Source: Octopus vulgaris
Lineage: Eukaryota
Assembly (NCBI GenBank): GCA_951406725.2
Contig: OX597832.1
Span: forward strand, 49,662,001 to 49,726,000
Direction: 5' to 3'
Length of the DNA: 64,000 nucleotides
Shown: in pieces, positions 10,961-53,500 of the stretch
Layout: each line of letters starts with the position of its first letter
How positions within the stretch are numbered: position 1 is the stretch's first letter
Notes under the pieces: generated by a model
What the model saw: the letters and a program-made list of their open reading frames with translations, nothing else
What the model was told of the DNA's origin: nothing
The model's database searches: none
Position numbers and translations under genes: made by a program

Positions 10961-11086
10961 TACAATTTGGACAAGAACGCAAAACATCCAAATAGACGAT
11001 ACAAAAAAATTATAAAGGTTTCGAATGACCCGTCCGTGTTTTTTGTATCGTCTATTTGGATGTTTTGCGTTCTTGTCCCAATTGTA
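10961..11086. repeat. Inverted repeat (48 bp arms, 30 bp spacer) of the family E terminus
   Basis: tacaatttggacaagaacgcaaaacatccaaatagacgatacaaaaaa and its reverse complement with 1 mismatch. Confidence 0.92.
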
Positions 11087-13535: not shown

Positions 13536-13852
13536 TCCCACCGAAGATATCTTAGCATTGTGTTTTTTTCCAGCTTGGTAGAAAAAAAGCACTAATCTGA
13601 GGCGGCGGATTAACGGAACTGTAAGAAAGTGGGAAGATCGAATGCCTTACGGTATTTGCTCCGGCTCTTTGCGTTCTAAGTTCAAATCCTACCGGGGTCC
13701 CACCGAAGATAACTTAGCATTTTATTTTTTTCCAGCGTGATAGAAAAAAAGCACTAATCTGAGGCGGTGGATTAACGGAACTGTAAGAAAGTGGGAAGAT
13801 CGAATGCCTTACGGTATTTGCTCCGGCTCTTTGCGTTCTAAGTTCAAATCCT
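13536..13852 (+). repeat. Tandem duplication of a ~160 bp old SINE-A-related unit
   Basis: tcccaccgaagata...gcgttctaagttcaaatcct repeated at ~13537 and ~13698. Confidence 0.85.
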
Positions 13853-14648
13853 CCTGGGGTCAACTTTGCATTTTAATCTTTTGTGCTCAATATATAAAAA
13901 AAAAAGTACTCGCCAGGGTGATGGATTTGCGAGACTGTATGAACGTCGGATTGGATATTGCGTTGAGTTCAATTCGTGCTATCGCAGGCTTAGTGGTGGA
14001 TTTAATCCATCACCCTGTTTAACACTTCAATCCTTGATTACATTTACCGTGCCTCAAACTGTTGCAAGCATTAAGGCCAGTTCGCCAGCTTAAGAACATC
14101 TTCCTTCCTCCTTGCGTTCCTTTCTTCCTTCCTTCTCTCCACCAGACTTAGAAGTCCTATAAAGGGCCATAAGCACCTTCTCTCTTCTTGTGATTAAGTC
14201 AATAAACAAAGGTCACACACACATATATACATGGGCGCCAGAGATTCGGCAGAGAGATCGGTGACTTCATCGGTTTGTACCTCCTAGAAAAAGAAACCGT
14301 AGCCTACTGAAATATTGATGGGCGAATGTGAATTCAAAATGAACGAACTGCAAGGTATTGCTTTTGAAATGCGATAGACTGACAGAATCAATAGATTTCC
14401 AACAAAATAACTTGTTCGAATTCTTTATGTTATAAGTTTAAGTCCTGCTAAGATCAACTTCGGCTTTCATTCTTCTGGATTCAACAAAATAAATTCCTTG
14501 GTTCAGAGCAAAGAATTGGCTGGATTGTAAGAGCTTTGAGTAAAATGGTTTACAATGATTGTTCCGGGATGCATAGGTTCTGAGTTCCCTTACAAAGGCA
14601 CTGACGCCAAGCTGTAGTGACCGTTATCTAAACACACACACACACGCG

Positions 14649-22597: not shown

Positions 22598-23372
22598 AAG
22601 GCGGCGAGCTGCCAGAAACGTTAGCACGCCGGGCGAAATGCGTAGCCGTATTTCGTCTGCCGCTACGTTCTGAGTTCAAATTCCGCCGAGGTCGACTTTG
22701 CCTTTCATCCTTTCGGGGTCGATAAATTAAGTACCAGTTACGCACTGGTGTCGATGTAATCGATTTAATCCGTTTGTCTGTCCTTGTTCGTCCTCTCTGT
22801 GTTTAGCCCCTTGTGGGTAGTAAAGAAATAGGTATTTCGTCTTCTTCTACGTTCTGAGTTCAAATTGTGCCGAGGTCGACTTTGCCTTTCATCCTTTCGG
22901 GGTCGATAAATTAGGTACCAGTTACGCACTGTGGTCGATATAATCGACTTAATCCGTTTGTCTGTCCTTGTTTGTTACCTCTGTGTTTAGCTCCTTGTGG
23001 GTAGTAAAAAAATAGGTATTTCGTCTATCTGCAACTTCTGGGTTCAAGTTCTGACGAGGTCGACTTTGCCTTTCATCCATTCGGGGTCGATTAAATAAGT
23101 ACCAGTTACGCAATGGGGTCGATGTAATCGACTTAATCCGTTTGTCTGTCCTTGTTTGTTCCCTCTGTGTTTAGCCCTTTGTGGGTAGTACAGAAATAGG
23201 TATTTCGTCTATCTGCACGTTGTGGGTTCAAATTCCGACGAGGTCGACTTTGCCTTTCAATCCTTTCGGTGGGGGGTCGATAAATTAAGTACCAGTTGAA
23301 CACTGGGGCCGATGTAATTGACTAGCACCCTCCCCCAAAATTCCTGGCTTTTTGCCAAAATTTGAAACCAAT
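22598..23372 (+). mobile_element. SINE family A with four tandem ~183 bp internal units
   Basis: One head at 22598; units begin ~22648, 22832, 23016 and 23200; terminal ...gccaaaatttgaaacc. Confidence 0.9.
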
Positions 23373-35881: not shown

Positions 35882-36080
35882 AGATTCGAAGCTTTTTTCC
35901 AAGGAATCTAATGCGCTTAGCTTAGTTTTCCTTGGGGCTGGCCAGATTGGAGCAATCTCAAGATTAATCAGCCGAAATTGCGAGGATAATCCTGTTCTTG
36001 ACTGAAGATTAAAGGCTTCGAATGTCCCGTCCGTGTTTTTTGTATCGTCTTCTAAATGTTTTGCGTTCTTGTCCCAGTTC
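35882..36080 (+). mobile_element. Repeat family E (Penelope pLTR-like, hammerhead-bearing) inserted in (TA)n; relatives at 40715-40941, 10961-11086 and 43275-43342
   Basis: Shared cgaatgtcccgtc...gtatcgtc...gttttgcgttcttgtccca terminus; copies adjoin microsatellites. Confidence 0.7.
35884..36023 (+). ncRNA. Non-circularly permuted hammerhead ribozyme candidate, copy 1
   Basis: Helix II GGCTG/CAGCC, helix III GCAAT/ATTGC, C17 at 35957, helix I TCAAGA/TCTTGA, GAAA at 35974, CTGAAGA at 36002. Confidence 0.78.
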
Positions 36081-40550: not shown

Positions 40551-40717
<167 letters not shown>

Positions 40718-40821
40718 GGAACAAAAACGTAATAGAGGACATTAAAACATTCGGACAGATGGACGATACAAAGGCGGAGAAGGACAATTAGAAGGACAGG
40801 CAAAAGAAAAAAAGACGGGAC

Positions 40822-40941
40822 ATTCGTGGTTTTCTTTCCTCAGTCAAGTTCCAGAAGTCACAACCATTTCGGGCAGTTACACTTGAGATGGTTCGATCTG
40901 GTTGCCCCCAAAAAGTCTAAGATAAGAGCATTAGACCCTTT
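40822..40941 (-). ncRNA. Non-circularly permuted hammerhead ribozyme candidate, copy 2 (diverged relative of copy 1)
   Basis: Helix II GGGCA/TGCCC, helix III AACCAT/ATGGTT, C17 at 40887, helix I TCAAGT/ACTTGA, GAAA, CTGAGGA; 6 compensatory pairs versus copy 1. Confidence 0.75.
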
Positions 40942-43251: not shown

Positions 43252-43337
43252 GTAAACGTTAAAAAAAAAACACAAACTGGGACAAGAACGTGAAACATTT
43301 TGAAGACGACAAAAAAACAACACAGACGGGACTTTCG

Positions 43338-43443
<106 letters not shown>

Positions 43444-50962: not shown

Positions 50963-53500
50963 TACGACGGGCTTCTTTTCGGCTTCCGTCTACCAAATCT
51001 ACTCACAAGGCTTTGGTCGGCCCGAGGCTATAGTAGAAGACACTTGTAGTTGTTTTTTTTTTTTATTTTAGTTTATATTCTTTAAAAACTTACGTGTCCA
51101 TAGTGTAAGAGGTTTTCTGCTTGGGTACCGTAATCGTATTTTTTGCAATCCTTTGAACGAACCAACTGAAATTTTAGAAAGAGTAAAATATACAAAATAG
51201 ACAAATTTTAAAATACATTTGGATCATAAGACAGAAGAGAAGCTTATTATGATTATTTATTTTAAAGTTTGAGGCTGGGTTGTAATATGTAATTTTTATA
51301 ATTTTTTAAATCGAAGTCAGATGTAGAGGATTCGTTGGACACAGTGTGAGACAACTGTTGTTATCGCTAGGCCTAACTCATCATAAAGTCAATACCACCA
51401 TGACTGATATCCAATCTACAGTGGAGAAGGCTAGCCACTGGATTTGGTTAAAAAGAGACGATGAGCGATGGCTAGAAGAATATTGAGTTTTATTTGATAA
51501 CCAGCTGATCTAGCAAGCGGGGCCTCATATCAGTGAGGGGGGCCGGTGCGCATTGATGCCGTCGAGAGGTAGGCCCCGAAACGGCACGCATTCTCTCCTG
51601 ATGACCCCATACACTAGCTAGCTTCCGGTATACGGAGCTTTTGACTGGTAGCACTTGCATGTGCAAGTTGTTTGCAAGACATCTAAAGTGGCGAGCTGGC
51701 AGAATCGTTAGCACACCGTCTACTGGACGCGGGGCATTTTGCTTGTATAGATATATTAGTCAACAAAGAAAATTGACTGCCCTCTTTGTAATATATTATG
51801 TATATTTGGGGGATGTCCATCATTCTGTACGAGTTGCTTTCATTTTGATTTGAAAATGATATTTTTTATTGAATATTTTGTCTTCCTTAGAAACTTGGAA
51901 ACGGACCTAAATTCTTTTGCTATTAAATTTCCGCAGAAATTCAATGCTTTCATTTCTAATTATTTTTGATAACATTGAAGGATTTAGTGAAATAACTTTG
52001 TCAATATTCCAAACTATATGCTTGGAATATATACATTAACATGAAACTGGAATCACCTTATTTTAATATAATATAATATAATGAAATTATTGTATACAGT
52101 GCTCAGGTGCACCACAACTTGTCAGAAAGTGCGTATAAAGTGTATGCAGTAATGTACAAATGTTTGGAAAGCAAACAATGTATGAGTCAGATACATGCTT
52201 GTGTGTGTATGGAGGGGAGAAAATCAGGTGTAGTGTTGGCGACTCTCAGGAAGCATGGAAGTTTTGAAGGATGCAGTGCTCCGACAAGAAGTTTATATCT
52301 TAAAACCAGAAGCAGTCTCAGACAGGTAGGGTATCAAGAAAAGGGCTGAGAGAATATTTTTCAAAAACAAACAAAAGAAACGTTTTATAATGAAAGAAAA
52401 CATGAGAATAAGAGAATGCTAATGATAAAGATGTATTTTCAGGCACTGGACTAAAATTTCATTGTAACCTTACCTGAGCAAAATGGGCCATATTTTGGGT
52501 AGAGGTACCGGCAGGTGAATGCGTTAAATAAACTGGTATACGAGACTGTAAAAGAAAAGAATTAAGCATCATTAAGAGGATATACCATTTATATCATCAT
52601 CATCATCATCATCATCGTTTAACATCCGTTCTCCATGCTAGCATGGGTTGGACAGTTCGACCGGGGATCTGGGAAGCCAGAAGGCTGCACCAGGCTCTGG
52701 TCTTATCTGGCAAAGTTTCTACAGCTGGATGCCCTTCCTAACGCCAACCACTCCGTGAGTGTAGTGGGTGCTTTTTACGTGCCACCTGCACTGGTGCCAG
52801 GCGAGGCTGGCATCGGCCACGGTCGGATTGGTGCATTTTATGGAAGCCAGTCGAGGCGGCACTGGCTTCGGCTACGATTCGGATGGTGCTTTTTATGTGC
52901 GAATCGTAGCCGAAGCCAGTGCAGTGCATCATAATCATAATTTTGTCACTCGTTAGAGATATGCGCCCTGACCTTTGCACCCTTTCCCTGCTCCCATCGC
53001 TTTAATTTTTGCAATCTTTATTCCCTGATTTCCCTGTTCTTTCTCTGTCTCGTTATTCCTGTCAAGGCTTGGAAAGGAACAGTCTGTCTGTCTGTCCCTT
53101 CTTATTCCCCACCACCACCACCACCACCACCACCACCATCTACACTGAAATCTCTCCCCTGCCAGCCATACCAGAGAGATTTCTGGTTTTTTGCTTTTGC
53201 TCTTACTAGTCTGTATGAGAAAGTGATGGTTATGCTGTGTCTGTTTATGTCCCGTAACTTAACAGTTCAACAAATAGAGAACAATAAAAAGAGTACTCTT
53301 TTACTTGTTTCAGTCATTTGACTGCGGCCATGCTGGAGCACTGCCTTTAGTCGAGCAAATCGACCCCAGGACTTATTCTTTGTAAACCCAGTACTTATTC
53401 TATCGGTCTCTTTTGCCGAACCGCTAAGTGACGGGGACGTAAACACACCAGCATCGGTTGTCAAGCAATGCTAGGGGGACAAACACAGACACACAAACAC

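Follow-up and report, generated by a model that had tools for sequence, protein, structure and literature searches.

A predicted hammerhead ribozyme with a divided core in the 3′ tails of octopus retrotransposons

Introduction

Which RNA structure has been kept in a short, diverged repeat copy near 40.9 kb of the window, and can that structure be a ribozyme? The window is the whole 64,000-nt stretch of the Octopus vulgaris genome analysed here (OX597832.1, positions 49,662,001 to 49,726,000), which lies on contig C19 of our numbering in a 2.8-Gb genome that is rich in microsatellites. A sequence-only reading of the window had pointed out that the minus-strand copy at 40.9 kb and a plus-strand copy at 35.9 kb are separated by six compensatory base-pair changes in three helices, and had concluded that selection acted on the RNA fold while the family diverged. 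Absent from that reading is the unusual part of the structure, namely a non-circular order of its blocks and a core strand, CUGAnGA, that lies apart from helix II.

The chemistry of hammerhead ribozymes and the crossover of strands in four-way junctions are both established. The hammerhead core is described in PMC3088659 as C3 U4 G5 A6 N7 G8 A9, G12 A13 A14 A15.1 and U16.1 H17. Eckert et al. (2023; PMC10085705) reported in their article text hammerheads with the non-circular block order S-G-C, including a helix that bridges stems I and II, and the contiguous SGC and CSG forms cleave in vitro. That text assumes that no interruption can occur within CUGAnGA and the strands next to it, and states that no known alignment has more than 1–2 nt between CUGAnGA and its stems. 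According to the same text, SGC and CSG hammerheads come almost only from metatranscriptomes and metagenomes and from no known eukaryote genome, with type CSG represented by two metagenome sequences only.

Predicted fold of the 40.9-kb copy

The copy at 40715–40941 (minus strand) is a 5′-truncated member of subfamily B of an ORF-less, Penelope-like repeat and ends at a (TA)n tract. Read 5′ to 3′, what is left of its motif begins with hairpin V (40941–40910; 11 bp including two G-U pairs), an accessory hairpin that was rightly said to persist in this copy and that forms one arm of a predicted four-way junction. Next come the 5′ strand of helix II (40907–40903, with G10.1 at 40907), displaced to the 5′ side of the motif and away from CUGAnGA, the 5′ strand of a putative helix that would bridge stems I and II (40901–40897), which is the equivalent of the "I" stem in SGC hammerheads, and block S (40892–40881), made up of the 3′ strand of helix III, the AUC triplet at 40889–40887 and the 3′ strand of helix I. 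A linker of 5 nt leads to block G (40875–40863), which holds the 3′ strand of helix II, GAAA at 40870–40867 and the 5′ strand of helix III, and this is followed by the 3′ strand of the bridging helix (40855–40851) and by a split block C (40849–40837), in which the 5′ strand of helix I runs into CUGAGGA at 40843–40837. After CUGAnGA comes helix IV and not helix II: the 3′ strand of this closing helix (40836–40829) begins right after A9, and hairpin V finishes right before G10.1. The 5′ strand of helix IV, which would stand at the head of the motif, is lost with the truncation at about 40941, as had been observed, and is carried by other copies of subfamily B. Because it is truncated and lacks this strand, the 40.9-kb genomic copy is probably inactive. 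The comparison copy of subfamily A (35884–36080, plus strand) has helix IV (35884–35895 with 36011–36023), hairpin V (35899–35935), a core at 36002–36008 and a predicted cut between 35957 and 35958.

Compared with the hammerhead definition, all core positions are present in the 40.9-kb copy, in agreement with the earlier statement that the core motifs are retained, and stems I–III pair adjoining the core, with the pairs G10.1–C11.1 and A15.1–U16.1. The blocks stand in the order S-G-C with a short linker between helices I and II. A9 is not joined directly (within 1–2 nt) to the 5′ strand of helix II, which lies upstream, and the uninterrupted block C that characterizes type SGC is not found. 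Because this contiguous block is missing, the motif is filed as a new variant, split SGC, and not as type SGC. By analogy with known hammerheads, the cut is predicted between 40887 and 40886, a position that the 5′ ends of copies support.

We put the probability at roughly 0.8 that the tail is a self-cleaving hammerhead of order S-G-C whose CUGAnGA strand is joined to helix II by the predicted four-way junction. In such a fold, helix IV would stack on hairpin V and A9 would still stack on G10.1, like the crossover strands of a four-way junction; since A9 would be stacked on G10.1, the normal active site would form and would cut after the NUH triplet. The split form would correspond to a CSG hammerhead cut between A9 and G10.1, with the new ends closed by helix IV. 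Against catalysis, natural hammerheads can be impaired by insertions at other places of the core, as described in PMC3088659.

Standard searches are of little help with such a structure. Rfam gave no match at gathering scores in the window and nothing relevant at E values up to 5 in seven loci; its hammerhead models do not match the motif, and nested models cannot score this order. With nested folding, four sense-strand motifs had z-scores between −0.6 and +1.0, and the 35.9-kb copy alone reached −3.7; the method is uninformative here, as the pseudoknots lie outside its model. HDV-like, twister and pistol folds were weighed by eye as alternatives and discarded. A reading of the opposite strand was also rejected: just one strand holds the core, and in the LINE and Naiad elements described below this is the strand of the ORF.

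Covariation between copies

The 40.9-kb and 35.9-kb copies share 67% identity over 155 nt. In an alignment of 40 copies made with MAFFT, unforced and without manual shifting, their helices fall in homologous columns. The core regions of the two copies differ in 27 columns, 12 of them within helices I–III, and these 12 differences among 32 helix positions are exactly the six compensatory changes that had been named, with no pair broken. Three double changes lie in helix II (G-C to C-G, C-G to U-A and A-U to G-C), two in helix III (A-U to G-C and C-G to A-U) and one in helix I (U-A to A-U). Under random placement, the chance of such a distribution alone is 3.5e-5 to 1e-4. In a simulation, post hoc in that the helices had been named ahead of the test, six double changes were reached in 5 of 200,000 runs and the absence of a broken pair in 3 of 200,000.

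Across the 40 copies, 93.2% of cells are paired, compared to 18–45% with slid partners, and nine pairs show double changes, a number not above that of a shuffle control, which ignores relatedness. The six changes are subfamily differences common to most copies and are not private to the 40.9-kb copy. Among 58 site-spanning copies, helix III is GCAAU/AUUGC in 30 and GUAAU/AUUAC in 10. In a subfamily of A with an AUA triplet (L395, L421, L466, L486 and L460), UCAGGA in helix I faces UCCUGA or UCCCGA, an additional compensatory change in some copies.

The extra helix of the sequence-only reading, which corresponds to the helix bridging stems I and II, is intact (5 bp) at 40.9 kb, but only four of the six homologous pairs hold at 35.9 kb; it is often mismatched in subfamily A, where 82.9% of its cells are paired, and it shows one double-change pair in the 40 copies. 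In young A subfamilies, helix IV is opened by two mismatches adjoining A9.

The proposal that selection acted on the RNA fold during divergence is supported by the further compensatory swaps and by the recurrence of the fold with unrelated helix sequences in other elements. It would be the source elements of the subfamilies, and not the truncated 40.9-kb copy, on which this selection worked.

The repeat and its copies in the genome

Genome-wide, the number of exact matches is 4,681 for a strict core pattern and at least 6,383 for a shorter subfamily-A pattern; neither reversed control gave a match. CUGAnGA is kept in 56 of 58 unselected A copies that span the site. The copies have a 3′ end fixed at (TA)n and a variable 5′ end, form head-to-tail units of 757, 807 and 843 nt, have an inverted partner in 3 of 30 cases and show no ORF of their own. 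Such features are given as hallmarks of Penelope-like elements in PMC8557442, and by its 3′ end, 5′ truncation, tandems, inverted partners, (TA)n bias and lack of an ORF the repeat qualifies as a non-autonomous Penelope-like element. In a loose test in this TA-rich genome, TA or TACA stood in the 3′ flank of 63 of 80 A copies, 11 of 12 B copies, 13 of 14 Naiad copies and 27 of 49 LINE copies. No blastn match longer than 18 nt links the repeat to the Naiad, LINE or Neptune-like copies examined as autonomous partners.

The Neptune-like family, found by a GIY-YIG search, was rejected as a demonstrated partner, having no similarity to the repeat. It is a young Penelope family (L093–L097, on contigs C16, C17, C6 and C3) with many intact 781-codon frames encoding a reverse transcriptase and GIY-YIG, a 479-codon frame upstream and, by eye, a variant of the nested type I hammerhead in which the core reads UUGAUAA.

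Within the window, 3′-tail fragments of subfamily A without the core occur at 10969–11083, where they form an inverted pair, and at 43275–43341. Other repeats stand in tandem at 22648–23323 (184 nt, 3.6 copies) and 13536–13861 (162 nt, 2 copies). The repeat is also covered by contigs of four runs (organisms A–D), which bear neither on expression nor on RNA ends.

The same wiring in an RLE-type LINE

A descriptor of the wiring was run over 895 kb of genome sequence, mostly chosen for containing the motif. It gave 103 split-SGC matches, one of which (L101) is regarded as chance, and no contiguous SGC or CSG match; the reversed control gave none. This run brought up a new family at 51.5 kb of the window, where 51474–51683 (plus strand) is a fragment of an RLE-type LINE, here called family C, that consists of stop codon and 3′ UTR. 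Its motif at 51519–51608, with a predicted cut between 51563 and 51564 and a flush four-way junction, has the same split-SGC wiring as the 40.9-kb copy in an unrelated sequence.

A pattern for family C has 661 matches in this genome. A full element (L254:936–4460) contains an intact 1,175-codon frame with an RVT_1 match (E 7e-19), and a C-terminal CCHC finger and PD...E motifs can be read in its translation. Its VELTVP motif suggests that the family may be HERO-like. RLE-type LINEs of the R2 superfamily are defined by a single ORF with reverse transcriptase, a C-terminal CCHC finger and a PD-(D/E)xK endonuclease (PMC4640811), and family C, as judged from its translation, belongs to them. The element forms direct partial tandems with a period of 3,734–3,738 nt, in which each intact 1,175-codon copy is directly preceded by the truncated 3′ end of another copy.

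Relatives of this LINE are encoded by 168 metagenome loci, the best 80 of which were analysed. These 80 loci gave 38 plus-strand split-SGC matches and, when reversed, no SGC match. Of the 38, about three seem false or duplicated (L338, within the ORF; the second L369 row; the choice of core in L346). Among the 35 ORF ends with at least 250 nt downstream, a count that includes near-duplicates, the motif lies 3′ of 29, in 28 cases within 52–213 nt. The six ORF ends without it comprise two with mismatched versions seen by eye, two with a motif elsewhere on the contig and two with none.

The 27 distinct motifs from these 80 loci have a median identity of 56%, and yet share features that the search did not demand: G10.1 is present in 27, C11.1 in 26 and G16.2 in 25. 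Their triplets are GUC (9), GUU (9), GUA (7), AUA (1) and CUA (1), and the linker between helices I and II is 1–7 nt long. Helices IV and V were likewise not part of the motif search, and in 24 of the 27 motifs the four-way junction is flush, A9, IV, V and G10.1 having no unpaired bases between them, compared to a mean of 0.63 and a maximum of 4 in 500 shuffled runs. Of the 27, 26 can form a bridging helix of at least 4 bp, compared to a mean of 21.7 in shuffles. A contiguous helix II after CUGAnGA (at least 3 bp with the strand before GAAA) is possible in one.

In some of the metagenome contigs (L332, L355, L359, L372 and L384), the LINE is circularly permuted, with the ORF end and ribozyme motif in mid-contig, as expected of tandem arrays or circles. 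Split-SGC motifs at L327:5018–5090 and near position 586 of L328 lie about 1.6 kb from the ORF end and not in the 3′ UTR close to it.

The same wiring in Naiad elements

Craig et al. (2021; PMC8557442) marked several Naiad elements as "HHR_core" or "HHR_half_core", for CUGAnGA and GAAA motifs at odd spacing that fitted no descriptor; in the parts of the article and supplement that describe them, Naiads are concluded to be without canonical hammerheads and no fold is given. By eye, the Naiad_Obim tail in that supplement has the same block order as the 40.9-kb copy. The consensus tails of Naiad_Ovul and Naiad_Obim match a motif present in this genome, and a pattern from the latter has 315 matches there, with none in the control. 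At one locus (L173), a reverse transcriptase frame ends about 880 nt upstream of the motif on the same strand; this locus consists of reverse transcriptase and 3′ UTR only, the part in which the N-terminal GIY-YIG of the Naiad clade would lie being outside it, and is assigned to Naiad by its match to the tail published as Naiad_Ovul. Directly upstream of this truncated Naiad, at L173:2956–3714, is the remnant of a second Penelope frame, Hydra-clade-like by resemblance. Helix IV is short in the octopus-type Naiad.

Among the published tails, split-SGC motifs can be read by eye in Naiad Ovul, Obim, 3_Chem and 2_Movir, among them tails from a hydrozoan and a box jellyfish, and more weakly in Esco and Bfor, from squid and ctenophore. 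A contiguous CSG motif is seen by eye in four nematode entries (Naiad_Parc, 2_Nbra, 3_Nbra and Hpol) and in the spider entry before Naiad_Lpol; these CSG-type tails in supplement S5 carry a long bridging helix. Several other published tails show no motif by eye or are incomplete. In this genome, the same wiring is seen at the ends of elements of two unrelated retrotransposon classes, Naiad and the RLE-type LINE.

Copy ends at the predicted cut and alternative explanations

A cut in the RNA should often halt a reverse transcriptase that arrives from the 3′ end. The distance from the motif to the 3′ end is about 120–130 nt in repeat, Naiad and LINE copies. In subfamily A, the first 100 of 6,383 matches, selected by a pattern downstream of the site, were analysed: 28 copies start in a 13-nt bin that reaches from the site to +11, and 21 start in the adjoining 104 nt on the upstream side, which gives densities of 2.15 and 0.20 per nt, ten times the upstream rate (p 7e-15). 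One of the 28 starts (L422) is an internal deletion, and tandem neighbours are not independent. The starts are spread over 0 to +11 with no single spike, and four by script or seven by eye are exactly at the site; since this stretch is AT-rich, microhomology with (TA)n contributes to them. Among minus-strand copies with (TA)4 within 30 nt, 81 of 465 genome-wide keep the site intact. In subfamily B, 10 of 15 copies start at 0 to +7, two of them exactly at the site (p 0.0014). Only two of 67 LINE copies start at the site, with none in the 10 nt upstream or the 13 nt downstream, and by eye 2 of 30 Naiad copies have their start between 0 and +7. The majority of copies of both the LINE and Naiad read past the site.

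This read-through, and the constant position of the motif where the reverse transcriptase would bind, fit an alternative in which the fold is real but non-catalytic or slowly catalytic, a structured 3′ handle for the element's reverse transcriptase with the core as its scaffold. Likewise, hammerhead mutants of an anole Penelope-like element had no effect on insertion in vitro in the experiments described in PMC11167929. We nevertheless regard a mere handle as unlikely: every catalytic position is kept at a median identity of 56%, while N7 and H17 vary as they do in active hammerheads, and the 5′ ends of copies fall tenfold across the predicted scissile bond, whereas structural stalling would be expected at the 3′ feet of helices, which would already be unwound when the enzyme arrives. 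Catalysis by the split-SGC motif is the reading that we consider probable.

Catalysis might instead come from an ordinary or contiguous hammerhead, formed in another register or between tandem copies, so that a split core would be unneeded. These elements are tandem, and minimal hammerheads associated with Penelope-like elements are described as cleaving as dimers. A dimer could not supply what is missing after A9, since a helix II strand stands at that place in none of the copies, and only in the one relative mentioned above is pairing possible between the bases that follow CUGAnGA and the strand ahead of GAAA, which leaves this explanation very improbable. That the six changes arose by chance in a neutrally decaying repeat, with coincidental core motifs, is hardly worth entertaining. 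Two copies do represent few events, the changes arose on one branch, Rfam is silent and the nested folding energy of the 40.9-kb copy is unremarkable, but the double changes, the pairing across 40 copies, the simulation and the independent families with their null controls speak against it, and it is already refuted as far as sequence can refute it.

Comparison with known ribozymes

Compared to the type-SGC hammerheads in the article text of PMC10085705, the motif has the same S-G-C order, a short linker between stems I and II, a putative helix bridging them and a full core. In contrast to both type SGC and type CSG there, block C is broken at A9/G10.1 by the chain ends and a two-helix junction, and the motif occurs in animal retrotransposons in thousands of copies.

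Penelope-like elements and non-LTR retrozymes carry minimal hammerheads of type I, as described in PMC4209133 and bioRxiv 10.64898/2026.07.22.740005, and these resemble it in their setting: they lie near the end of tandem, 5′-truncated retroelements, have ORF-less derivatives and are cut about 100 nt upstream of the 3′ end of the copy. However, they are nested three-way junctions, whereas split SGC is multiply pseudoknotted with six helices. The ordinary nested hammerhead of the Neptune-like elements of this genome, seen by eye, differs in the same way from split SGC. The "HHR_core" and "HHR_half_core" motifs of Naiads (PMC8557442) have the same odd spacing and, by eye and for the tails given there, can now be read as split SGC or CSG.

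Hammerhead-type split SGC lies in 3′ UTRs, unlike the HDV-like ribozymes that occur in non-LTR elements, R2 and RTE among them; these are reportedly self-cleaving, process the retrotransposon transcript and sit at its 5′ end. Hammerhead variants with extra helices, for which Weinberg et al. (2015) are cited, are not known to have the split-SGC wiring. In the literature compared, which for PMC10085705 was the article text, neither such a wiring nor a hammerhead in the tails of these LINEs was found described.

Implications

As to the role of cleavage, it seems about an even chance that it releases unit-length RNAs with clasped ends and accounts for short as opposed to long or tandem copies. In head-to-tail arrays, cuts would release unit-length RNAs, both ends of which would rebuild one ribozyme and stay clasped. 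Reverse transcription would be primed about 120–130 nt downstream of the cut; in the anole Penelope-like element, it is reported in PMC11167929 to start about 90 nt downstream of the hammerhead cut. An enzyme that halts at the nick would leave short copies beginning at or just after the cut, and one that passes an uncut, religated or bridged site would leave long and tandem copies.

We lean, by a little, towards a broader proposal. A seventh natural hammerhead wiring, in which a four-way junction restores a core that is divided at A9/G10.1, would serve a widespread lineage of RLE-type LINEs and many Naiads as their standard 3′ ribozyme, with CSG filling in for it in nematode and spider Naiads, and a self-clasped nicked circle would explain the tandems of both classes. 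If this is true, a stated rule of hammerhead architecture, that block C is uninterruptible, would be broken, and non-circularly permuted ribozymes would move from metatranscriptome contigs to animal genomes, in thousands of copies. The open remark on Naiad "half cores" without a hammerhead would be answered, and a LINE lineage of the R2 superfamily would have a hammerhead in its 3′ UTR, for which we found no earlier report. Such a ribozyme would also bear on how these elements form tandem copies and on their use as gene-insertion tools.
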